Notes under the pieces: model-generated
What the model was told of the DNA's origin: nothing
What the model saw: the letters and a program-made list of their open reading frames with translations, nothing else
The model's database searches: none
Program-made: the position numbers and the translations under genes
From: Acaryochloris marina MBIC11017
GTDB lineage: Bacteria; Cyanobacteriota; Cyanobacteriia; Thermosynechococcales; Thermosynechococcaceae
Direction of reading: 5' to 3'
NCBI RefSeq assembly: GCF_000018105.1
Contig: NC_009925.1
Coordinates: 1 to 32,000, forward strand
Length of the DNA: 32,000 nt
In this document: positions 1,627-29,320 of the stretch, piece after piece
Position numbering within the stretch: the stretch's first letter is position 1
How the letters are laid out: every line of letters starts with the position of its first letter

Positions 1627-2319
1627 TCAAACCTCGAAGTTAAATCCCTGTTGTTTCAATAGCTCGTATTTGCTTTGGTCGAACTGATAGAGTCTGGCAG
1701 CACGATGAGCAACTCCAGTTTGTTGCTCATCAAGGGGAATTAAGAGATCCATTTTTAGCAATTTCTTACGAAAGTTCCGTTTATCTAGAGGATGGCCAAG
1801 AACTGTTTCGTAAAGCTGCTGAATTTGGGTGAGTGTAAATTTTTGCGGCAGTAGTTCGAAGCCAATCGGTTCGTAGCGAACTTTGCCCTGCAATCGCCGG
1901 ATGGCCTGTTTCAAGATTTGAGCATGATCAAAAGCTAGAGATGGCAAATTCTCAATGGAGTACCAGGCTGCGTCTTCAGCATCAGTAGAGGCTTGTAAAG
2001 GATATTCGATGAGGTTGATTAGAGCGTAGTAGGCAACGGAGATGATGCGATCGCGCGGATCTCGACCCAAATCGCCAAAGGTATAGAGCTGCTCTAGGAA
2101 AATACCCTGAACCCCCGTTTCTTCTCGCAGCTCCCGGCGAGCCGCGTCTTCTAAAGATTCATCCATCTGCACAAAGCCTCCGGGTAATGCCCACTGATGC
2201 TGGAAAGGGGGAATCTGGCGCTGAATCAGTAGGACTTTGAGATCGATCTGTTCGTCTAGGCCAAACACCACGCAGTCAACGGTAAGACCAGGGCGCGGAT
2301 AATCATAGGTATAGGGCAT
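1627..2319 (-). CDS. nrtR: NrtR-family Nudix-related transcriptional regulator (Nudix + C-terminal winged helix)
   Basis: The Nudix box [24 protein letters not shown] is intact (GX5EX7REUXEEXGU). It is followed by a roughly 90-aa wHTH-like C-terminus ([28 protein letters not shown]). Two GT-N7-AC palindromes lie in its divergent upstream region. Confidence 0.8.
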
Positions 2320-2334
2320 AGGATAGGGGCAATC

Positions 2335-2363
2335 TTGACATCGTGTAAAAACGACACTATGAT
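2335..2363 (+). promoter_or_regulatory. Sigma70-like promoter for the rightward cluster
   Basis: -35 TTGACA (2335-2340), exactly 17 bp spacer, -10 TATGAT (2358-2363). The spacer is filled by operator 1. Confidence 0.55.
2340..2360. promoter_or_regulatory. NrtR-type operator 1 (21-bp palindrome, GT-N7-AC core)
   Basis: ATCGTGT-AAAAACG-ACACTAT. The arms are complementary at 6 of 7 positions. It sits between -35 and -10. Confidence 0.6.
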
Positions 2364-2376
2364 GGTTTTATTCAAG

Positions 2377-2397
2377 TTAGTGTCGTTTTTACACTAT
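2377..2397. promoter_or_regulatory. NrtR-type operator 2 (21-bp palindrome, GT-N7-AC core)
   Basis: TTAGTGT-CGTTTTT-ACACTAT. It is the near-exact reverse complement of operator 1 (a 17-bp perfect inverted repeat between 2343-2359 and 2379-2395). It lies just downstream of the predicted TSS and 7 nt before ATG 2404. Confidence 0.6.
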
Positions 2398-2403
2398 AGA
2401 GCA

Positions 2404-3255
2404 ATGCAACAGCATTTTGAAGTCGCGGCCGGGTCTATTTTGGGCCAGAACCATCGACGAGTGAGTCAGAATAATCAAGATGCTTGGGCAAGTCTGACGC
2501 TAGGTCAAGCAACCATTGCGGTGGTATGCGATGGGTGCGGAAGTCGACCTAAAAGTGAAGTTGGCGCGCAGCTTGGGGCTCAGTTAACGGTGCATGCTCT
2601 TGCCCAACTCGTAGCAGAGGAGCAACCGGAAGACGAGCTGTTTTGGCAGATGTTGAGGAAGCACCTATTAGGAGGGATGCAGACTTTACAGGAGCGGCTA
2701 GGAGCAGATTCGCAGAGGCTGGTGGATTACTGGTTATTCACTCTGATGGGGTGTTTAGTGACCCCAGAAACAACCTGGATTTTTGGCCTAGGGGATGGGG
2801 TATTTGCCATCAATGAGGAGTTCCATCAGATTGGCCCATTTACTAACAATGCCCCGCCCTATCTGGCCTACAGCTTGCTATGGAACACCGAGAAGGGCCT
2901 CGATCCGTTTCAACTCCAGATTTATGCTCAACACCCCACAGAACAGGTGCAGTCTGTGCTGATTGGGAGCGATGGAGTGGGGGATTTAGTTAATGTAGCA
3001 GAAGATTATCTCCCTGGGAAGTCAGAGCTGGTAGGACCACTGAATCAGTTTTGGTGTTGCGATCGCTATTTCCAGAACCCTGATCAGGTGCGACGACGGC
3101 TCGCTCAAATTAATCGAGAGGTAATACAGCCAGATTGGCATACCCGGCAGGTGCGGAAGATACCCGGGTTATTACCAGACGACACTACGTTAATCAGTAT
3201 TAGACGCAAAGGGACAAAAGAAGGAGGTAGCGATGCTAGGTGCAATTGCAGGTGA
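2404..3255 (+). CDS. PP2C-like Ser/Thr phosphatase (PP2C_2 / PphC-YegK type)
   Basis: AVVCDGCGS and LIGSDGVGD metal-binding Asp motifs. I moved the start from the tracked 2335 to ATG 2404, because 2335-2403 is occupied by the promoter and operators. Confidence 0.7.
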   Translation: MQQHFEVAAGSILGQNHRRVSQNNQDAWASLTLGQATIAVVCDGCGSRPKSEVGAQLGAQLTVHALAQLVAEEQPEDELFWQMLRKHLLGGMQTLQERLGADSQRLVDYWLFTLMGCLVTPETTWIFGLGDGVFAINEEFHQIGPFTNNAPPYLAYSLLWNTEKGLDPFQLQIYAQHPTEQVQSVLIGSDGVGDLVNVAEDYLPGKSELVGPLNQFWCCDRYFQNPDQVRRRLAQINREVIQPDWHTRQVRKIPGLLPDDTTLISIRRKGTKEGGSDARCNCR

Positions 3256-4009
3256 CATCATTGGGTCGGTATTTGAGCCCCATTGGCGACGAATTAAACG
3301 GAAAGAGTTTGACCTATTTAGTAAAAAATCAAAATTTACAGATGATACGGTGCTGACCATTGCAGTTGCTGATGCCATTCTCCATCAGAAAGCATATGCC
3401 CATACCATCAAGGACTATTATCGGCGTTATCCCAAAGCTGGCTATGGCAAGACTTTTCGGGAGTGGGGAGCATCAGACAGTATGGAGGCGTATCACAGTT
3501 GGGGAAATGGTTCGGCCATGCGGGTCAGTGCCGTTGGGTTCGCCTTTGATGATTTAGAAACGGTATTGCAGGAGGCGGAGCAGAGTGCAGCCGTTACTCA
3601 TAATCGTCCAGAAGGGATTAAAGGGGCCCAGGCAACGGCGGCAGCGATTTACCTAGGGCGGCAGGGACGATCTAAAGCGGAGATAAAAACCTATATCGAA
3701 ACCACCTTTGGCTATGACTTGCGTTTGAGCCTGGAAGAAATTCGGCCCCAGTATCAATTTGATAGTTCCTGCCAGGGGTCAGTGCCCCAGGCGATTACGG
3801 CGTTCCTAGAGTCGACAGATTTTGAGGATGCCATTCGCAATGCCGTATCTCTGGGAGGCGATAGCGATACCCAAGCCTGTATTGCGGGCGGTATTGCCCA
3901 AGGATTCTATGGTGGAGTGCCAAAACAGATTGCCCAGGAGACCTGGGCGCGATTAGATGCTGATTTGCAGCAGGTGGTAGAGGCATTTATGGCAACTTAC
4001 CAGATTTAA
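3233..4009 (+). CDS. ADP-ribosylglycohydrolase family protein (ARH/DraG-like)
   Basis: Motifs GDIIGS, FTDDT, WGNGSAMR and GGDSDTQA. GGAGG (3223-3227) lies 5 nt before the ATG. The start overlaps the phosphatase gene by 23 nt. Confidence 0.85.
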   Translation: MLGAIAGDIIGSVFEPHWRRIKRKEFDLFSKKSKFTDDTVLTIAVADAILHQKAYAHTIKDYYRRYPKAGYGKTFREWGASDSMEAYHSWGNGSAMRVSAVGFAFDDLETVLQEAEQSAAVTHNRPEGIKGAQATAAAIYLGRQGRSKAEIKTYIETTFGYDLRLSLEEIRPQYQFDSSCQGSVPQAITAFLESTDFEDAIRNAVSLGGDSDTQACIAGGIAQGFYGGVPKQIAQETWARLDADLQQVVEAFMATYQI

Positions 4010-4170
4010 TAGGTGCATTAAAGACGTATCGCGATACACCTTGCTTTTAGGTGTATTAGCTGAATGTACGCCAACCTCTTTCTCCAATAAGGATTAAAAG
4101 CAATACCATAAAACATCAATTCGTATCGTCAACTGGTATTGCGATACGGGAACCTACTTTCTCAATTTTT

Positions 4171-6042
4171 ATGGACGTTTATATCAATCAAAAACGAGTT
4201 CGTCTGCGGCCTCAGCAAGCCATTGGTAAGGGGGGAGAAGCGGATGTGTATCGTCTCAATCGAACAACGGCGGTGAAGCTGTTTAAACCGCCCAGTCATC
4301 CAGATTTTGAGGGCATGGTTGAGGCTCAGCAGGGTGCACGGGAACGGTTGGCACTGCATCAGCAAAAGCTACGGCAGTTCCCCCAGTCTTTGCCTGAGCG
4401 TGTCATTTCCCCCCAAGCGTTGGTGATGAATCAAAATGGACAGCGCATTTTGGGCTATACGATGCCACTGCTCACCCATGCAGAGGTGCTGTTACGGTAT
4501 TGCGATCGCCGCAGGCGGGTCAAGGACCATTGCAGAAGGCAGGTCGGAGACCATCGCAAATTCCAGCAGGCGGTTGATACTCAGGCGGTAGTTGACCTGT
4601 TTTTAGATCTACACGAGACCGTCTCCAAGCTGCATTTTGCAGATGTGGTAATTGGGGATTTTAACGACCTCAATATTTTGGTCCAGGGCACCCAGGCATT
4701 TGTGATTGATGCCGATTCATTCCAGTTTGGTTCGTTTCCCTGTTCGGTCTTTACAGCCCGGTTTGTCGATCCACTGCTGTGCGATCCGCAAGGGACACAA
4801 CCGATATTATGTCGCCCCTATTGCTGGGAATCGGATTGGTACGCCTTTACGGTGATGTTGATGCAGGCACTGCTGTTTGTTGATCCCTATGGAGGGGTTT
4901 ATAAACCCTCTGATCCGGCTCAGCGATTACCACAGGCGGCGCGACCACTACATCGGGTGACGGTGTTTCATCCGCAGGTGCGCTATCCCAAGCCAGCTTT
5001 ACCTTGCGATCACTTGCCGAAACCCTTGCTGGATCATTTTCGCCAGGTGTTTGAGCAGGATTGGCGGGGGGAGTTTCCGCGATCTCTATTGGAAAATTTG
5101 CGCTGGCATACCTGTCCGTCCTGTGGGGTGGAGCATGCTCGCTCTGCTTGTCCAAGCTGTGTGAAATCTGTGGGGATCCCGATGCCGCCAGGTGCGGTTC
5201 AGGTGACAACGGTGCTGCAAACGAATGGAGTGATTTTGGCGGCGACGTTAACGGCGGGGCAGCTACAGTGGCTGGTCTGGGAGGAAGGACAGTTTAAGCG
5301 AGAAGACGGAACGGTGGTGCTCACGGGTGATCTCAGTCCTGAGTTTGACTGGCATCTCCAGGGTCAAACCACCTGGATTGTCCAGCAGGGTCAAGTGGTG
5401 GAATTGCCAACCACGGAGCGCATTGCGGTGGATAGCTATCAAGGTCGCCCCCAGTTTGCGGTCAACGATCGGCATAGTTATTGGTTCAACCAGGGACAGT
5501 TGATGCGAGACCATGCCGTAATGGGGGAAGTATTGATCGGACAAACTCAATTTTGGGTGGGGCCTCGGTTTGGTCTGGGCTTTTATCGAGCTGGACAATT
5601 GAACGGAGCCTTTGTCTTCGATGCTGATCGTTCAGGCATCAACGATCGGCTGTCTTTGTCTATGGAAGCGGGGACAGTGGTGGCGGCCCACTGTACGTTT
5701 AGTCAGTCCTTCGGGTGGCTCTTTGTCACCCTGCAGGCCCAAGGGGTGCTGCAACAACGCTGTTGGGTGATTGCGCCGACGGGTCAGGTACTAGCGCAGG
5801 CGGAGGTAGGGGAATGGGCCGCAACGGCATCCGGCCCTTGTCCCCACTGGGCGGTGGAAGAGGCGCTGTTCGTGGCCACGGATGAGGGCATTATCCGGGC
5901 GCAGGTGGAGCAGGGGCAGGTGATCGTACAGCGACGATTCCCGGAAACGGAGCCCTTTGTACAGACGGGCTGTCAGTTGTTGGCGGCCCCCCAGGGACTC
6001 TATACGGTCGGGTCCCAAACGATTCAGTTATTGCAGTTATAG
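4171..6042 (+). CDS. Protein kinase-like protein (YegI / TerY-P-triad type) with Zn ribbon and beta-rich C-terminal domain
   Basis: G-loop [10 protein letters not shown], Lys in AVKLF, catalytic loop [12 protein letters not shown], and FVIDADSF as the DFG equivalent. CPSC-X8-CPSC is at 5113-5160, followed by about 290 aa rich in beta-strand-like repeats. Confidence 0.75.
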
Positions 6043-6053
6043 GAGTGTTTGAG

Positions 6054-7085
6054 ATGATGTTGACGCAATTACCGATTCCTGATTTTTTTGACCCTCAGCG
6101 GGTGGGAGAGGTGTGGCGGGTTCCTTACCAGGAACGAGCCCAACAGGCCCAGGACTGGGCTAACCAACAGGGGATACAGCCAGCAGCGAAGGATAAAACG
6201 CGCGTCTGCCTGATGGCCATTGATGTCCAAAATACGTTTTGTATTCCCGAGTTTGAGCTGTTTGTGGGGGGACCATCCGGGATGGGGGCGGTGGAGGATA
6301 ATCGCCGACTCTGCGAGTTTATCTACCGCAATTTAGGGACGATTACGGAAATTGCACCGACGATGGATACCCATACAGCGATGCAGATCTTCCATGCTGA
6401 TTTCTGGGTGAATGATCGCGGTGAGTCCCCCGCACCACTCACGATGATTCCTCTGGCGGAGGTGGAGCAGGGGGCCTGGAAGGTAAATCCGGCTATGGCC
6501 TATAGTCTGGGCAATTATATGGCGCTGCAGAATTTTGCCCGCCATTATGTTCAAAGTCTTTCCCAAGAGGGCAAATATCCCCTGACAATTTGGCCCTATC
6601 ACTCCATGTTGGGAGGCATTGGTCACGCCCTAGTGGCGGCGGTGGAGGAGGCCTGTTTTTTCCATAATCTGGCCCGCCATAGTCAGACCCATTTTGAAAT
6701 TAAGGGGGGTAATCCGCTGACGGAGAATTACTCGGTACTCCGACCGGAGGTTCTCGATGATCCCAAGGGGCGGCCCATTGCCCAAAAGAATACCCGATTT
6801 ATCCAAAAGCTGCTGGATTTTGATGCGGTGATTATTGCAGGGCAAGCCAAGAGTCACTGTGTGGCCTGGACCATTGACGACTTGCTGACGGAAATTCAAG
6901 CCCATGACCCGAGTCTGGCCCAGAAAATCTACTTACTAGAAGATTGTTCTTCGCCGGTGGTGGTGCCAGGGGTGGTCGATTTTACCGAGCAGGCGAATGA
7001 AGCGTTCCTCCGGTTCCAGCAAGCGGGGATGCATGTGGTGCAGTCTACGGAGGCGATCTCAACTTGGCCTGGAATCCATCTTTAG
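6054..7085 (+). CDS. pncA: Nicotinamidase-like isochorismatase-family amidohydrolase (long form)
   Basis: AIDVQNTFC (Asp), [11 protein letters not shown] (metal Asp/His), [14 protein letters not shown] (Lys, PncA-like KG...SYS) and AGQAKSHCV (nucleophile Cys). The AGGAG SD (6041-6045) overlaps the kinase stop codon. ATG 6054 is preferred over GTG 6045. Confidence 0.7.
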
Positions 7086-7271
7086 GCAGAAGGGTCAGGA
7101 TCAACTGTGTGCATAAGGTGTAAGGATGGGCTGCTAGCATTTCTCAATAATGCGTAAATAATCTTTTTTTAATCCACTTGGCCTCTTTTGAGGTTTGGGA
7201 GCGATTGTGATCGCTTCACAGGATACGTTTGTCTTTTTTTTCAATGTTTTGGTTTATTCAAGGAGGATGGG

Positions 7272-8051
7272 ATGTCTCAAGTTCCCAATTTAAATACGTT
7301 ATTCCAATCTGCCCAAGCGGATGGGGTACTCTCTAATGCATCGATGCAGGCTCTCAATGTTGTCGATATTGGGGCGCAAATCCAGGCGGGACTGGGAACA
7401 CCGGTGGATGATGTGATGGCCAGTGAGGTGGTGCTGGTGACGATTATGCCGGATGATTCGGGGTCGATTCGGTTTGCGGGCAATGGGGCGGTGGTCCGAG
7501 CGGGGCATAATATGGTGCTGGATACCTTGGCTATGTCCCCGCAACAAGATCAGATTCTGGTTCACAACCGCTATCTCAATGGGGCAGTGCTTTATCCCTA
7601 CTGTCCTGTTGACCAAGCGCTTCGGATGGATCAACACAATTATGATCCGAATCTAGGTACGCCGCTCTATGACCAAACCCTGGTGTTACTCGCTACGGTG
7701 CTGGCGAAGGCCCAAGCTTTTATCGATAATGGAGTGCCGGCACGGACGGTGTCGCTGATTATTACGGATGGGGCGGATGCCCATTCTCGGCGCTCGGTAC
7801 GCGAAGTCAAGGGGGTGGTCGAGGATATGCTAAGAACGGAAGACCATATTATTGCGGCGATGGGCATCAATGATGGACAGACGGACTTTAAACGAGTGTT
7901 TCGAGAGATGGGGGTGCGTGATCAATGGATCTTGACGCCCGGCAATTCTCAAAATGAGATTCGTAAGGCGTTTCAACTGTTCTCTCAGTCGGTATTGAGG
8001 GCCAGTCAGTCGGCGCACAACTTTAATTCCTGGGGCGGTTTTGGACCTTAA
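7272..8051 (+). CDS. von Willebrand factor A (vWA) domain protein, TerY/YegL-like
   Basis: MIDAS DDSGS at 7452-7466, then TPLYD and ITDGADA. AAGGAGGA lies just upstream of ATG 7272. The tracked N-terminal extension from 7188 was discarded. Confidence 0.75.
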   Translation: MSQVPNLNTLFQSAQADGVLSNASMQALNVVDIGAQIQAGLGTPVDDVMASEVVLVTIMPDDSGSIRFAGNGAVVRAGHNMVLDTLAMSPQQDQILVHNRYLNGAVLYPYCPVDQALRMDQHNYDPNLGTPLYDQTLVLLATVLAKAQAFIDNGVPARTVSLIITDGADAHSRRSVREVKGVVEDMLRTEDHIIAAMGINDGQTDFKRVFREMGVRDQWILTPGNSQNEIRKAFQLFSQSVLRASQSAHNFNSWGGFGP

Positions 8052-14130: not shown

Positions 14131-16395
14131 TTAATTCTGCACATCCACAATGGGCGACGTAGATGGTGCTAGAAAGGAAAAATTAGGGTTCATGGGCTGT
14201 TGTTGAACAAACCATTGAGGTCCAGCCTGAAGATGTTCTTCTAACTTCTCCTGACTCATGGGTGGAGAGAACCAATATCCTTGTCCCCGTTCGCAACCCA
14301 ATTTCTTTAAGTGTAAAACTTCTTCTTCTGTTTCAATTCCTTCGGCAATTACATCCATATTTAAGGTGCGGGCCAGAGAAATAATGGTATTCACAATCTC
14401 AGCATCTTTCGGTTCGGAGATCATCCGACTCACAAAAGATTGATCAATCTTGAGGGTATCTAAGGGAAATCGGTAAAGGTAGCTCAAAGACGAATACCCC
14501 GTCCCAAAGTCATCCAGGCTGATGGTTATGCTGCGATCGCGCAGTTGCTGCAGCGTCTTTATATGCTTCTCTTCATGGGACATCAGCATACTTTCAGTGA
14601 GTTCAAGCTTTAAATATCGTCCGTCTAACCCGGACTGAGATAAAACCCGATCCACAGTTTGGATAAAGTTAGGATCTTGCAGTTGTTCACTGGATAAATT
14701 GACGCTAAATTTCAACTCCGTTGCAGAGGCAAACTGTTGTTGATAATCTCGTAGAGTCTGGCAGGCTTCCTGAAGTACCCACTGACCAATTTCTACGATT
14801 AGCCCCGTCTCTTCTGCTAAGGGGATAAATTCCGATGGCATCACTAATCCCCGATCCGGATGTTGCCACCTAACCAAGACCTCAACATCCGTAAGGTCTC
14901 CTGACTGCAGGTCAATGATCGGCTGGTAATACAGCACAAATTCTTGTCGATCAACCGCAGACCGCAGATCTCGTTCAAGTTTGAGCAGGCTAAGGGTCTG
15001 GGCATGCATCTCTGGGCTGAATACTACAAAACAACCTTTCCCTAAGGATTTAGCACGATACATGGCAATATCTGCATCCCGCAATAATAAGGTTGGATCG
15101 TCATACTGCACCGAGTTGTAAGCGATTCCGATACTGGATCCCGTAAAGACACTATGTTCTCCCACCTGAAAGGGCGATTTTAAGGTTTCCAGGATGCGTT
15201 CTGCCACATGGATCGCATCCTCTATGCCTTGAATACCATCCAGGAGAATGGTAAATTCATCTCCCCCAAGACGGGCCACGGTATCAGAGGTGCGCACACA
15301 GTTTTCTAACAGATGTGCGATCGCAACTAGCAATTGGTCACCGACAATATGTCCCAAACTGTCGTTGATAATCTTAAATCGGTCCAGATCAATAAACAGC
15401 AGCGCAAATTGATAATCGGACGTGCGATGCTGGCGCTTCAAGGACTGAGAAATGCGCTCCATCATCAAATTACGGTTTGGTAGTCCCGTTAATTCATCAT
15501 GAAAGGCATCGTGGATTAATTGAGCTTGAGCCCGTTTTTGCTCCGTAATATCGTAAATAATTCCATCTAGGCGGTGGGGACGTCCTTGATCACCCGTGAT
15601 CACATGGCCTCGATTTTTCAGCCACCTAATTTCTCCATCGGGCCGCAATATTCGATATTCAATATTAAGGGAACCGGCAACGAGCAATTGATCAAAGAAA
15701 TGGATCATTTGATGACGATCCGCAGGATGAACCACCTCTAGCCATAAATCAGGATTACTGAGGAATGACGACACCGGATAGCCATGAACCGCTTCTGCTG
15801 CTGGGTTCAAATACAACAGTTGAAACTCTTCAACGGCTGCTGACCACACCACATCATCCAATGAATTGAGAATGCTTTCTAAACGGGTTTCACTCTCCTG
15901 CAGCTTCTGCTGTACGAGCTGACGTTCATCGATTTCCCCCTGTAATTGAGCATTCATCGCTCGCAGGGTTCTATTCTGGCCAATTAGCTGTTCATCTTGT
16001 AGGTGACTCCTTAAAGCCGCCTTTACCGTTAAACCTAAATCAGTTTCATCCCAAGGTTTAGCGATGTAACGATATAAATTGGCAGAATTAACCGCGTTAA
16101 TGACCGCATCTAAATTCGCCTCCCCAGTTAACAGAATTTTTCGGGTTTTGGGGTACTGAATCTGTAAATAACTGAGAAGAGAATCCCCCCCCATATCCGG
16201 TAAATTCTGATCACAAATAACCAAGGGGATCGGAATTTGATCCGCCTCTAATTCTGTAAATAGTTCGAGGGCCTCACCACCGCTTTCTGCCACCTCAATT
16301 TCATAACTATCGTCGATAATTCGCTGCAATTGATCTCTCAGAGTATTCAAAATCAATCGGTCATCATCAATGCAAATGATCGTGCCTTTGCTCAC
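14131..16395 (-). CDS. Response regulator receiver-PAS-GGDEF-EAL protein (c-di-GMP turnover)
   Basis: REC (IICIDDD...LVICDQNLPDMGG...KP), PAS, RLGGDEFTILL, and EAL-type EVLVRWQHP / ELTES / DDFGTGYSS. Confidence 0.9.
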   Translation of the reverse strand: MSKGTIICIDDDRLILNTLRDQLQRIIDDSYEIEVAESGGEALELFTELEADQIPIPLVICDQNLPDMGGDSLLSYLQIQYPKTRKILLTGEANLDAVINAVNSANLYRYIAKPWDETDLGLTVKAALRSHLQDEQLIGQNRTLRAMNAQLQGEIDERQLVQQKLQESETRLESILNSLDDVVWSAAVEEFQLLYLNPAAEAVHGYPVSSFLSNPDLWLEVVHPADRHQMIHFFDQLLVAGSLNIEYRILRPDGEIRWLKNRGHVITGDQGRPHRLDGIIYDITEQKRAQAQLIHDAFHDELTGLPNRNLMMERISQSLKRQHRTSDYQFALLFIDLDRFKIINDSLGHIVGDQLLVAIAHLLENCVRTSDTVARLGGDEFTILLDGIQGIEDAIHVAERILETLKSPFQVGEHSVFTGSSIGIAYNSVQYDDPTLLLRDADIAMYRAKSLGKGCFVVFSPEMHAQTLSLLKLERDLRSAVDRQEFVLYYQPIIDLQSGDLTDVEVLVRWQHPDRGLVMPSEFIPLAEETGLIVEIGQWVLQEACQTLRDYQQQFASATELKFSVNLSSEQLQDPNFIQTVDRVLSQSGLDGRYLKLELTESMLMSHEEKHIKTLQQLRDRSITISLDDFGTGYSSLSYLYRFPLDTLKIDQSFVSRMISEPKDAEIVNTIISLARTLNMDVIAEGIETEEEVLHLKKLGCERGQGYWFSPPMSQEKLEEHLQAGPQWFVQQQPMNPNFSFLAPSTSPIVDVQN

Positions 16396-16488
16396 CGTTG
16401 CTCCACCATTGTCGCTGTCGTCACTTTGGGCACATTCCGTTCAAATACAATGAGGATTAACCTGATATTCAAGCACATTTTCAACTGA

Positions 16489-18816
16489 TTAGCTCACCTC
16501 AAGGGGTAACCAGACCTCAAACCTAGTATGCCCTGGCTGACTCTGACATTCGACCTTCCCTTGGTGTTTATCGACAATTTTACGGACGATATCTAGTCCC
16601 AAACCACTCCCTTCGCCAGCAGGTTTTGTCGTGAAAAAGGGATCAAAGATCTTGGCTTGCACATCCTCAGGAATACCACTGCCTGAATCCGTAAAGCTGA
16701 CCAGAATCCCCTGCTGCTCCTGGCCAATGGTTAATTGAATGTGGCCTTTGTAATCCATAGCCTGCATGGCATTGTGCAGCAGATTCGTCCACACCTGAGC
16801 CAGTTCTTCTGGATAGCACAGAATATCTGGGACATCCTCAAAGTCTTTAGTCAAGTCGATACCGTGTTTAATCTGGTTATGGTACAAGGTCAGAACCGTC
16901 TCTACCGTGTCTGTAACTGACGCTTTGACTTTCTCGTTACTCAGATCTTGGCGAGCATAGCTCTTCAGAGCAAACACAATTTTGGCTGCCCGTCCTACAG
17001 CCAAGCGGATATTCTGAGTGTTGTTATGTATGACCGTCAAATCATAGGCAACATCCAGAACTTCGGTATTGTTCGGCAACTCCAGAATGGGTAGAAACGA
17101 CGAAAGATCAGCAGAGACCCCCATCTTACTAAGGGTACTAGCCATATCATTGGCAGGCTCTAAGCTTTTCTCTGCCAGGATTTTCTTCAAACTTCGTTTC
17201 AGCTTACGCTCCTCGCGGGAGGTTAACAGCTCCTGTTGCTGAGCCATCGCCAATAACTCAAAAAATGCGTCGGTTTGTTCTGGCTGTAATTGATCCAGGA
17301 TTTTGGGGAGCTGCTGCATGGACTTCTCTAGAGAAGATGCAATATTTTCTCCGGCAGCTTGAATCGCCCCCAAGGGCGTATTGATTTCATGGGCAACCCC
17401 TGCGGTGAGTTGGCCTAACGCCACCATTTTTTCAGATTGAACCAGTTCCTGGGTTCGCTGTTGAACCTCCTGTTCTAGAGACCGGTTATATTCTGCTAAC
17501 TGTTGTTCACTCTTTTTGAGTGCCTCTACCACCACATTTCGTTCTTCCAAGGAGATGCGCAGATCTTGAACCATTTGATTAAACGATCGTGCTAATTCTC
17601 CTAACTCATCCGAGCGGTTGAGAGCAACACTTCGCTGCAAATCTCCTGAAGAGATAGCCGTAGCAGCAGCGTTGATTTTCAAGATGGGATTCGTCACCCA
17701 CCGGGCGGTAGACACCCCAATGAGGATCGCAAATAGCAGCGCAGCAACCGATAGCCCAATGGTTGAGCGGGTATTGGCATAAATTTGTTCCATAAAGTCT
17801 GCTTCTGGAACAACAACCACACTGAGCCAATCTAAACCATGCTGATCTCGAAGGGGATTCACCTGGAGAAAATAACGCTTGCCCTCAATATCGATGGTGA
17901 GCTGTTGGCGAACCGAAATCTCCTGCAAAGTCCCAAACCGATCCAATAATGTTTGAGTGGTTGCCCGGACAACGGGATCTTTGCTTTCCAGGGCTGGTAA
18001 ACGCTGTGGACCTTTCTCGGAAGGCGTAAAGGGCTCCTCGGCCGTAGAAGTAGCAACCATTAATCCTGAGCGCTCCAGGATAAAACTCTTGCCTGTTTTA
18101 CCAATCTTGAGGGTTTGCAGAAAATCGCTAAACTGAGCAATCGATAGATCCGTTGCTAAGATACCTTGAAAGGTTCCGGACTGATCATAATAAGGTTGCC
18201 CTAAGGTAATGGCTAAAGTCGGAGGGTTAACCCAAGCATAAATATCGGTCCAAGTCGGCTTATCTTTTTTTTCGGGAATTAAATACCAAGGACGTTTTTG
18301 GGGTTCAAAATTAGGAGATGTTTCTAATTTTTTCCCCCGCTGTCCATTTTGTTTAATGGCATAGGTTTGTAAATCCCCAGAATACTCCGTTACCTGATAA
18401 GTAAAACTACCATCATCATTCGCTGCCAGCCCGACAAATTCTCCTTTGGGCGTCCCAAACTGAATATAGCTAATCCGATCAAATACCTGGATCTGTCGCC
18501 AAAAATGGCGTTCCATACTGTTGAGGTTATCGGCGCTCAGCTGCCCGAGTTCTAAAGCATTCTGATTAAGCTGGTTAACGGCATGGGGAGCAGCCAAATA
18601 GGTTTGGGTCCGCTCAGCAATATGGACTTCCACTTCATCTGTCAGCTGCTGAGCCAGGGATTCAATTGATCGTTGACCATTCTGAAATGATAAATAACCG
18701 ACCAGACCAACTGCACCGCAAACCTGCAATACAAAAGGTACAACCAGGACCGTTCTGAGCTTGTGGCGACGAGCGAGTTTTCCAGGGAAGGATCGCAGCG
18801 TTTGAATAAACATCAA
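16489..18816 (-). CDS. Sensor histidine kinase (TM-Cache-like-TM-HAMP-HisKA-HATPase)
   Basis: Two TM segments flank a roughly 300-aa periplasmic domain. HAMP (SDELGELARSFNQM), H-box GVAHEINTPL, and N/G boxes (NLLHNA, DSGSGI, GSGLGL). Confidence 0.9.
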   Translation of the reverse strand: MMFIQTLRSFPGKLARRHKLRTVLVVPFVLQVCGAVGLVGYLSFQNGQRSIESLAQQLTDEVEVHIAERTQTYLAAPHAVNQLNQNALELGQLSADNLNSMERHFWRQIQVFDRISYIQFGTPKGEFVGLAANDDGSFTYQVTEYSGDLQTYAIKQNGQRGKKLETSPNFEPQKRPWYLIPEKKDKPTWTDIYAWVNPPTLAITLGQPYYDQSGTFQGILATDLSIAQFSDFLQTLKIGKTGKSFILERSGLMVATSTAEEPFTPSEKGPQRLPALESKDPVVRATTQTLLDRFGTLQEISVRQQLTIDIEGKRYFLQVNPLRDQHGLDWLSVVVVPEADFMEQIYANTRSTIGLSVAALLFAILIGVSTARWVTNPILKINAAATAISSGDLQRSVALNRSDELGELARSFNQMVQDLRISLEERNVVVEALKKSEQQLAEYNRSLEQEVQQRTQELVQSEKMVALGQLTAGVAHEINTPLGAIQAAGENIASSLEKSMQQLPKILDQLQPEQTDAFFELLAMAQQQELLTSREERKLKRSLKKILAEKSLEPANDMASTLSKMGVSADLSSFLPILELPNNTEVLDVAYDLTVIHNNTQNIRLAVGRAAKIVFALKSYARQDLSNEKVKASVTDTVETVLTLYHNQIKHGIDLTKDFEDVPDILCYPEELAQVWTNLLHNAMQAMDYKGHIQLTIGQEQQGILVSFTDSGSGIPEDVQAKIFDPFFTTKPAGEGSGLGLDIVRKIVDKHQGKVECQSQPGHTRFEVWLPLEVS

Positions 18817-29247: not shown

Positions 29248-29320
29248 GCGCTCGTAGCTCAGCGGATAGAGCAGTTGCCTTCTAAGCAATTGGTCGCAGG
29301 TTCGAGTCCTGCCGAGCGCG
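29248..29320 (+). tRNA. tRNA-Arg (anticodon UCU)
   Basis: Hand-folded cloverleaf: acceptor GCGCUCG/CGAGCGC, D arm GCUC/GAGC, anticodon stem GUUGC/GCAAU with loop CUUCUAA, T arm GCAGG-UUCGAGU-CCUGC. No encoded CCA. Confidence 0.9.

Follow-up and report, generated by a model that had tools for sequence, protein, structure and literature searches.

Which role could a nicotinamidase-like enzyme play when it is encoded between a protein kinase and a von Willebrand factor A (vWA) protein, behind the predicted operators of a Nudix-type repressor? This question is raised by a six-gene locus at the chromosome start of the cyanobacterium Acaryochloris marina MBIC11017, within the 32,000-nucleotide stretch of DNA analysed here (NC_009925.1, positions 1 to 32,000; hereafter, the window). 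The genes, probably AM1_0003 to AM1_0008, comprise nrtR on the minus strand and, divergent from it on the plus strand, those for a PP2C phosphatase, an ADP-ribosylglycohydrolase (ARH), a YegI-like kinase, a PncA-like amidase and a vWA protein. An earlier note made from the sequence alone had described this order and these strands, and all six genes were recovered by the open reading frame (ORF) listing and by family scans. It had read the kinase, phosphatase and vWA protein as a TerY-P-type signalling triad into which two enzymes of nicotinamide adenine dinucleotide (NAD) turnover, the ARH and the amidase, had been inserted.

Our survey of related genomes leads to a different partition, in which the PP2C, kinase, amidase and vWA genes are an invariant four-gene core (tetrad) and ARH is optional. 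Based on sequence comparisons and with moderate confidence, we propose that this operon would serve NAD salvage and the response to ADP-ribose under NrtR repression, its putative nicotinamidase being coupled to a reversible phospho-switch.

A conserved tetrad and its genomic neighbours

The kinase profile was searched against one genome per GTDB species, which returned at least 490 relatives; 80 loci were fetched and searched by tblastn with the six window proteins, and the denominators of the PP2C and amidase-vWA counts below are the testable loci. The PP2C gene lies directly upstream of the kinase gene in 72 of 73 loci, and the amidase and vWA genes lie downstream of it in 49 of 52, the three loci without this downstream pair belonging to Spirulina-like genomes. 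An nrtR gene was found no more than 5.5 kb upstream in 40 of 60 loci. ARH was present in 28 of 60, with 0, 1, 2 or 3 copies in 32, 17, 10 and 1 loci, respectively, and all-against-all ORF clustering retrieved the six genes as the only widely shared ones. Of the two enzymes formerly regarded as inserted, only ARH thus keeps the status of an optional element: the amidase recurs as consistently as the kinase, surpasses all other components in conservation and is therefore not an insertion. Median identity to the window proteins reaches 74% for the amidase and 69% for both the vWA protein and NrtR, followed by ARH (61%), the kinase (49%) and PP2C (45%); the conservation of the amidase and vWA protein fits a housekeeping enzyme complex.

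The vWA gene always follows the amidase gene, even where the locus is split. In JAGHZQ01, one of the three Spirulina-like cases, the amidase-vWA pair occupies a separate contig behind its own TTGACA promoter, which carries two predicted NrtR boxes (0 of 200 shuffles reached two matches), and the contig bearing the PP2C-kinase pair (L031) has one box upstream of PP2C. Since both halves share promoter type and boxes, we view the module as a single regulon made up of two pairs, PP2C-kinase and amidase-vWA. The neighbourhood survey also refutes a chance juxtaposition of six genes without functional link, the outcome by which the reading of the earlier note would have been refuted and to which we assign a negligible probability. 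The order recurs in the 80 genome loci and on IMG/VR contigs and is kept across phyla at the frequencies given above, and in the split locus both halves have a promoter of one type, with NrtR boxes.

The four-gene core extends to loci from metagenome-assembled genomes labelled Acidobacteriota, Chloroflexi (Chloroflexaceae), Gemmatimonadota, Planctomycetes (Planctomycetia), Desulfobacterota (Desulfococcaceae), Gammaproteobacteria and several groups of the Candidate Phyla Radiation (CPR). In non-cyanobacterial loci nrtR is often co-directional. Genes of NAD synthesis lie near the core in non-cyanobacterial and IMG/VR loci, including pncB (NAPRTase, 5e-53) in 8 loci and nadE (5e-38) in 5, and non-cyanobacterial operons further encode an NMNAT-NAD kinase fusion, Nudix, SLOG and Prs-like proteins and a canonical ARH. 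Together with the macrodomain genes of other related loci, these neighbours reinforce the link to ADP-ribose and NAD that had been drawn from the window alone.

Several of these accessory genes are unusual in themselves. The fusion is a 460-aa protein joining a cytidylyltransferase-like part (of the nicotinamide mononucleotide (NMN)/nicotinate mononucleotide adenylyltransferase type) to an NAD-kinase N-terminal match (L054:14214-15596, L078:13928-15334 and L050:16652-18034), encoded straight after vWA in CPR-type loci; it would be unusual for one polypeptide to lead from mononucleotide to NADP. Locus L054 also encodes tandem SLOG (LSDAT_prok) proteins (15939-16862 and 16923-17702) between the module and pncB, SLOG domains being predicted sensors of NAD- or ADP-ribose-derived nucleotides. 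In 12 Pseudanabaena-type loci (L038, L045, L047, L049, L051, L052, L058-L061, L063 and L074), a 198-aa ORF separates the kinase and amidase genes (e.g. L059:11886-12482); it has no Pfam match and contains a motif resembling PD-(D/E)xK nucleases (...VVVVVEAKKE...). A Uma2-family gene stands between amidase and vWA in L124. Both the 198-aa ORF and the Uma2 gene look like selfish insertions tolerated by the operon.

An NrtR-family regulator and a two-operator promoter

The nrtR gene (1627-2319, minus strand; ABW25092, probably AM1_0003) encodes a repressor with an N-terminal Nudix fold (Pfam NUDIX, 8.6e-23) and a C-terminal winged helix (NrtR_WHD, 1.2e-28), whose closest PDB match is BtAraR (5bs6, 4e-58), with SoNrtR (3gz5) at 8e-35. 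Its Nudix box, GX5EX7REUXEEXGU, is intact, as in 38 of 48 module-linked orthologues, and is degenerate in about nine of the 48, apparently the non-cyanobacterial ones. The recognition helix LDKRNFRKK, kept in 41 of these 48 orthologues, is identical to the BtAraR residues that contact GTGT in the crystal structure. In BtAraR, D178, R180, R183 and K184 read GTGT, and the validated operators are AGTGT-N7-ACAC, often in tandem (PMC4666351). The Nudix box is degenerate in AraR and in most NrtRs, and effectors differ within the family, being ADP-ribose, NAD (NdnR) or arabinose (AraR) (PMC4666351). According to Rodionov et al. 2008 (PMC2330246), the sites of NrtR are 21-bp palindromes which have a GT-N7-AC core and overlap promoters, and ADP-ribose releases NrtR from DNA in vitro. 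Judged by its domains, the window regulator is an NrtR-family member, though not the curated NtrR equivalog.

Upstream of PP2C, a predicted sigma-70-type promoter (2335-2363, plus strand) combines a -35 hexamer TTGACA (2335-2340), a 17-nt spacer and a -10 hexamer TATGAT (2358-2363), with 11 of 12 consensus matches. An inverted repeat at 2340-2359 and 2378-2397 (20 nt, 95% complementary) resolves into two 19-bp boxes of the form TAGTGT-N7-ACACTA, with a GTGT-N7-ACAC core; allowing up to two mismatches, the TAGTGT-N7-ACACTA pattern occurs nowhere else in the 32-kb window. Predicted NrtR box 1 (TCGTGTAAAAACGACACTA, 2341-2359) fills the promoter spacer and overlaps the -10, and predicted box 2 (TAGTGTCGTTTTTACACTA, 2378-2396) sits between the -10 and the PP2C ATG, the nrtR-PP2C spacer reading TTGACA-t-cGTGTaaaaacgACACTATGAT...TAGTGTcgtttttACACTAT...ATG. 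Box 2 is also overlapped by a minus-strand promoter-like site (2421-2393) and lies upstream of nrtR as well, from which we infer autoregulation of nrtR.

The layout of -35, box 1, -10, box 2 and ATG is identical across about 35 aligned cyanobacterial nrtR-PP2C spacers, and in about 70 of the 80 genome loci such boxes lie ahead of PP2C at a distance of 0-60 nt. They also precede PP2C in loci without an adjacent nrtR and in other phyla, with CPR-type loci carrying one box ahead of nrtR and one ahead of PP2C. The operators formerly predicted on the operon promoter are hence corroborated by a two-box architecture kept in about 70 loci and in both halves of the split locus. Short repeats also occur in these spacers: in Pseudanabaena (L038, L045, L047 and L053), inverted arrays of GAATTAC/CGTAATT heptamers, (AATTACG)n ... 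(CGTAATT)n, lie upstream of the conserved promoter, and other loci carry different short tandem repeats at the same position.

A putative nicotinamidase paired with a vWA protein

The families proposed for the six proteins were confirmed by Pfam for NrtR, PP2C and ARH. None of the window kinase, amidase and vWA proteins has a Pfam match of its own (vWA or TerY in the latter case), and single-sequence PDB searches returned nothing useful with any of the three, nor did the amidase alone have a PDB sequence match; profiles and models were required for their placement.

The amidase gene (6045-7085, plus strand; probably AM1_0007) encodes 346 aa and was placed by its family profile. Its relatives are named 'isochorismatase' at NCBI and 'nicotinamidase-related amidase' at JGI, and nine of 25 match Pfam Isochorismatase, weakly (best 1.2e-3). 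Six residues never vary among 25 sequences with identities as low as 42%: D60, D108, H110, H186, K220 and C272, the latter being the predicted catalytic cysteine (codon 6858-6860). Aligned with Mycobacterium tuberculosis PncA (hhalign 91%, E 9e-7), the profile places WPyH186 on WPPH71, K220 on K96 and C272 on C138, and in the profile search against PDB D60 aligns to PncA D8. This latter search ranked M. tuberculosis PncA and Leishmania nicotinamidase at the top, with three collinear active-site motifs and weak scores (E 0.04-0.09). The Asp-Lys-Cys triad (D60/K220/C272) and the metal site, D-x-H (D108, H110) ... WPxH (H186), are both complete. These features point to a PncA-like cysteine hydrolase, a putative nicotinamidase with a full triad and metal site, whose substrate would be nicotinamide. 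A second copy of the large amidase, divergent and 40% identical to that of the window, is encoded downstream of vWA on a Saccharibacteria-labelled contig (L079:14051-15001).

The stand-alone vWA protein (7272-8051, plus strand; probably AM1_0008; 259 aa) was identified by its AlphaFold2 (AF2) model and by its metal-ion-dependent adhesion site (MIDAS). The model, with a predicted local distance difference test score (pLDDT) of 77.6, retrieved 52 Foldseek PDB matches at E<=1e-3, the best 50 of which are vWA/integrin-I-type domains or proteins containing one. The MIDAS is complete and invariant (D61-x-S63-x-S65, T130 and D166), its DDSGS motif being encoded at 7452-7466. Aligned with E. coli YegL, the vWA profile yielded an hhalign probability of 16%.

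The kinase, the phosphatase and an optional glycohydrolase

The kinase gene (4171-6042, plus strand; ABW25095 = AM1_0006) encodes a 623-aa Ser/Thr kinase, also placed by its family profile. This family is large, with 1,873 relatives at E<=1e-3 in a 90%-identity cluster collection and 530 clusters at E<=1e-30 in a 50%-identity representative library; among the best 150 of these 530 clusters, most are about 600-680 aa long and match end to end. Of 30 relatives, 28 match Pfam Pkinase and 21 match RIO1. The YegI-like character suggested earlier was supported by an alignment of the family profile with E. coli YegI (hhalign 97.6%, E 3.5e-12) over the kinase and cysteine regions. The layout comprises a kinase domain (about aa 1-300), a four-Cys zinc ribbon (C315-C330, nucleotides 5113-5160) and a beta-rich C-terminal domain of about 280 residues (about aa 340-623) without family match. 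Residues G21-G22-E23-A24, K36, D163-x4-N168, D180/D182, C315, C318, C327 and C330 are invariant in the 30-sequence alignment.

The PP2C_2-type Ser/Thr phosphatase (2404-3255, plus strand; AM1_0004 = ABW25093.1, a tag taken from an RNA-seq paper supplement) likewise holds as PP2C-like (Pfam PP2C_2, 2.6e-23), with weak similarity to E. coli PphC (BLASTP E 2e-4). ARH (3233-4009, plus strand; ABW25094, probably AM1_0005) matches Pfam ADP_ribosyl_GH at 2.2e-37 and, best among PDB entries, ARH3 (1.5e-16). Both of its metal motifs are present, FTDDT being conserved in 36 and GGDSDT in 40 of 43 orthologues. Tandem paralogues are 55-78% identical to one another and keep the catalytic motifs. ARH is a cyanobacterial, lineage-specific accessory of the operon, in 0 to 3 tandem copies.

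The core on virus-classified contigs

The core is found on at least 14 IMG/VR contigs (40-545 kb, GC 0.32-0.69), most of which lack nrtR. One of them has the order pncB-nadE-PP2C-kinase-amidase-vWA-macrodomain, its macrodomain matching 2fg1 (E 7e-40) and 5e3b (1.4e-38), and a macrodomain gene adjoins the core on some virus-classified contigs. A search with the amidase profile retrieved 27 IMG/VR contigs, about 19 of them with kinase and/or vWA genes nearby and two with an ARH 52% identical to that of the window. The flanks encode a PIF1 helicase, RNase H, a CCA-adding-type enzyme and an HNH endonuclease; PHROGs matches in these flanks were sparse, and no structural genes were seen there. The viral nature of these contigs, which rests on the IMG/VR label, is plausible. 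Among GenBank phages, no kinase homologue was found, and amidase relatives were only distant (30-38% identity), three of four matches being in huge phages.

Gene starts and surroundings of the locus

Gene starts differ from those given previously. That of PP2C is most likely ATG 2404, not TTG 2335, since this TTG is part of the -35 hexamer and homologues start at the equivalent ATG straight after box 2; the long TTG-initiated ORF (2335) was therefore rejected. The vWA protein starts at ATG 7272 (7188/7272 in the ORF listing), with an AGGAGG site in front and a length of 259 aa that matches its homologues, and the amidase probably starts at ATG 6054 rather than 6045. The ARH start overlaps the PP2C stop by 23 nt. 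The ARH-kinase spacer (4010-4170, 161 nt) contains the short palindromes gtatcgcgatac and ACACCT-N8-AGGTGT, and neither an NrtR box nor a terminator-like site was found in it.

Directly upstream of nrtR, reverse-transcriptase remnants lie on the minus strand (931-1581). ORF 1126-1581 matches RVT_1 (3e-14) over profile positions 72-203 only, and ORF 931-1125, in a different frame, resembles its C-terminal continuation, so that these remnants are probably a frameshifted pseudogene of group II intron, retron or diversity-generating retroelement type. A tRNA-Arg (TCT) at 29248-29320 (plus strand) is the sole Rfam or ARAGORN match within the 32-kb window. Outside the window, AM1_0314-AM1_0326 are annotated as O-acetyl-ADP-ribose deacetylase, ADP-ribosylglycohydrolase and hypothetical proteins, and are among the top-induced genes in high white versus low far-red light, with log2 changes of 2.4-5.1 (PMC11633204). 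This suggests that ADP-ribose metabolism in A. marina responds to light stress. The high-light-induced ADP-ribosylglycohydrolase AM1_0325/0326 belongs to another locus, the window kinase being AM1_0006.

Relation to known systems

The transcriptional half of the module resembles the NrtR NAD-salvage regulons of Pseudomonas and Clostridium (nrtR<>pncA-pncB; PMC2330246), which share a Nudix and winged-helix repressor, GT-N7-AC palindromes over the promoter, often in tandem, and a nicotinamidase-type target, with pncB and nadE in the extended operons of other genomes. Unlike in these regulons, kinase, PP2C and vWA genes are obligatory here, the nicotinamidase-like family is distinct (about 345 aa), and the cyanobacterial regulator has an intact Nudix catalytic box; among the cyanobacterial regulons listed by Rodionov et al. 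2008, none contains these genes (PMC2330246). With BtAraR (PDB 5bs6; PMC4666351), the regulator shares the DKRNFRK recognition helix and often tandem AGTGT-N7-ACAC operators. AraR differs in that its Nudix box is degenerate, its ligand is L-arabinose and its targets are ara genes; here, an intact box goes with targets connected to NAD and ADP-ribose.

The signalling half recalls the TerY-P triad, defined as vWA, PP2C and a serine/threonine kinase with zinc ribbon (PMC11090510, citing Anantharaman et al. 2012; bioRxiv 10.1101/819920, 10.1101/303594). Like E. coli yegI-pphC-yegL, the module brings together in a single operon a PP2C_2 phosphatase, a vWA protein that stands alone and a YegI-type kinase whose zinc ribbon is C-terminal. 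However, a PncA-like amidase is here an invariant fourth member between kinase and vWA, NrtR boxes lie on the promoter, the vWA protein is not detectably YegL/TerY-like, and neither ter genes nor restriction systems or CoCoNuTs are linked to it. PADLOC-DB, assumed to include TerY-P models, gave only marginal unrelated matches for the kinase and PP2C (E 2e-3 to 4e-3) and none for the vWA protein. The TerY-P assignment of the earlier note stands for the phosphatase and for the kinase with its zinc ribbon; the vWA protein has the fold and the MIDAS with no detectable TerY/YegL similarity, and the unit is a tetrad, not a triad.

The logic linking ARH and NrtR in that note is essentially the one put forward by Iyer et al. 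2022 (PMC9503650, section 3.8) for ARG-centric systems, in which ARG would release ADP-ribose, a Nudix-HTH protein would sense it and the writer would come from the invader. Both kinds of system have an ARG lacking the matching transferase, a negative regulator of Nudix-HTH type predicted to sense freed ADP-ribose, a vWA 'chaperone' and, in some cases, macrodomains (PMC9503650). Those systems have ARG as core, phosphatases of rhodanese, calcineurin, HD or HAD type and fast evolution, in Actinobacteria, Planctomycetes and Proteobacteria; by contrast, in the present module ARG is absent from 32 of 60 loci, PP2C and a kinase are present, the nicotinamidase-like protein is core and evolution is slow. 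Finally, NARP1-3 (Adps and Namat, NadV and NMNAT, PnuC and NadR, respectively) and the also phage-borne NadV/NadM salvage resemble the virus-classified loci in placing NAD-rebuilding genes on phage or phage-like genomes, with NAD cleavage products as input. Yet none of them uses a nicotinamidase with PncB and NadE or comes with a kinase, PP2C and vWA set, and by family scans none of the six window genes belongs to the NARP1-3 enzyme families.

The sources covered on NrtR, TerY-P, ARG-centric systems and phage NAD metabolism mention neither an obligatory nicotinamidase-like fourth partner of the triad nor NrtR control of it. In agreement with the earlier note, which knew of no description of the five-gene combination, we found none of the gene combination or of the locus tags in the papers that could be searched. 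Taken on its genes, the module thus appears to combine the transcriptional half of a typical NrtR regulon with a signalling half fitting the TerY-P definition, in a combination that seems new, widespread and uncharacterised.

A possible two-level control of nicotinamide clearance

In the mechanism we propose, NrtR dimers would sit on the two boxes, covering the strong TTGACA/TATGAT promoter from its spacer through the -10 to the start region, together with the nrtR upstream region. Upon NAD cleavage or ADP-ribosylation, ADP-ribose or a close derivative may bind the Nudix domain and release the repressor; as its Nudix catalytic box is intact, the cyanobacterial regulator may also degrade its own inducer. 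Nicotinamide is the other product of NAD cleavage and an inhibitor of NAD-consuming enzymes. The amidase would convert it to nicotinate for the PncB-NadD-NadE route, and the kinase, with its beta-rich domain as a putative sensor, and PP2C could reversibly phosphorylate the vWA-amidase pair, switching nicotinamidase activity or assembly and adding a fast post-translational gate to the transcriptional one. ARH, where present, would strip ADP-ribose from modified targets, both repairing them and supplying the inducer, a task that the macrodomain may take over on some virus-classified contigs.

A number of observations weigh against this proposal. The regulator scores 184 bits against the NCBIfam NtrR equivalog NF050029 (ADP-ribose-responsive), far below its cut-off of 400, and is nearer to the arabinose-sensing BtAraR than to SoNrtR. 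The window amidase misses the Pfam Isochorismatase model, and its AF2 model (pLDDT 73.5) falls below 50 at the active-site loops 109-113, 184-196 and 219-236. Foldseek matches of this model were not significant (E>=0.07), for which reason we grade the fold evidence as weak, nicotinamidases being at the top by probability (0.7-0.9). Two non-cyanobacterial loci (L050 and L077) also carry a canonical short isochorismatase/PncA-like gene, so that the large amidase may act on another pyridine amide. Moreover, in A. marina RNA-seq under light regimes, AM1_0004 is the only one of these genes listed, with a log2 change of 0.38.

Part of these points are captured by the quite unlikely reading in which the amidase is not a nicotinamidase and the regulator not an ADP-ribose sensor, the enzyme acting on another amide (e.g. 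in NMN or nicotinamide riboside deamidation, or on an unrelated isochorismatase-family substrate) and the ligand being retuned as in AraR. The missed Pfam model, the short isochorismatase of L050 and L077, the similarity to BtAraR and the variety of NrtR-family effectors, such as NAD for NdnR and arabinose for AraR, would all agree with it. Nevertheless, the triad and metal ligands specific to nicotinamidases do not vary, structural and profile searches alike rank nicotinamidases best, pncB and nadE turn up with the core in several loci, and the Nudix box, which has degenerated in AraR, is preserved here. A different role for the same enzymes, which we regard as quite unlikely, would be that of a counter-defence cassette of mobile elements or giant phages, rebuilding NAD by the Preiss-Handler route (PncA-like amidase, PncB, host NadD and NadE) after TIR, SIR2 or other NADase immunity, with the triad timing or localising the process and bacterial copies domesticated under NrtR. 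The core-bearing IMG/VR contigs, mostly devoid of nrtR, the frequent company of kinase and/or vWA genes on contigs with the amidase, the adjacent pncB, nadE and macrodomain genes, the replication- and RNA-related flanking genes listed above and the existence of phage NAD reconstitution in NARP1-3, none with PncA, speak for it. Against this stand the dependence of the viral status on a database label, with sparse PHROGs matches and no structural genes seen in the flanks, the distant amidases and lacking kinase of GenBank phages, and the fact that most occurrences are chromosomal, strongly conserved and equipped with NrtR boxes.

Defence may also be sought in the triad itself, which would then be a TerY-P-type sensor of stress or phage as the essential output, with NAD enzymes as auxiliaries processing the products of an invader's ADP-ribosyltransferase or NADase; we hold this to be unlikely. 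TerY-P was reportedly presented as a defence system by Gao in 2020. TerY-P-like modules are capable of protecting against phage (PMC11090510), the kinase is YegI-like with a zinc ribbon, no ADP-ribose writer is seen among the six genes, and contexts of Nudix-HTH, ARG and vWA are predicted to counter viral ADP-ribosylation (PMC9503650). The duplication and divergence of tandem ARH copies and the comparable accessory positions of ARH and macrodomain in different loci are likewise conflict-like traits. Conversely, an effector (nuclease, pore or NADase) is absent, the PADLOC match is unconvincing, the vWA protein shows no detectable likeness to TerY/YegL, the core includes the amidase while ARH is dispensable to it, and the neighbours belong to NAD biosynthesis and not to defence. 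The conserved core, with a synteny fixed across cyanobacterial orders, is also unlike patchy, fast-evolving defence islands. Amidase and vWA conservation, fixed synteny and NAD-biosynthetic neighbours together argue for a homeostatic module over fast-evolving defence, as the proposed NAD-salvage operon would be, and the optional, duplicating ARH and the phage-like carriers leave room for a role in conflict.

Implications for NAD metabolism and phospho-signalling

The transcriptional regulators NadR, NiaR and NrtR are regarded as the main control of NAD salvage in bacteria. A nicotinamidase-like enzyme locked to a eukaryote-like kinase, its phosphatase and a putative vWA adaptor across hundreds of genomes and several phyla would imply, in addition, a control of nicotinamide clearance by phosphorylation. 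As a tentative and still doubtful extension, the PP2C, kinase and vWA proteins could constitute a dedicated post-translational sensor-switch of NAD turnover acting on a specialised nicotinamidase, present in most filamentous cyanobacteria, in many unicellular ones, in several other phyla and in giant phages; in the latter, together with pncB, nadE and the macrodomain, it would represent a fourth, Preiss-Handler-type NAD reconstitution against NAD-depleting immunity. Nicotinamide acts as an inhibitor of sirtuins, ADP-ribosyltransferases and NADases, and depleting NAD is among the major strategies against phage, which makes a regulated nicotinamidase a plausible control point in stress and in phage-host conflict. 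It would also provide a concrete, testable output for YegI-type kinases and TerY-P-like triads. The conserved two-operator promoter offers a clean system for the study of NrtR.

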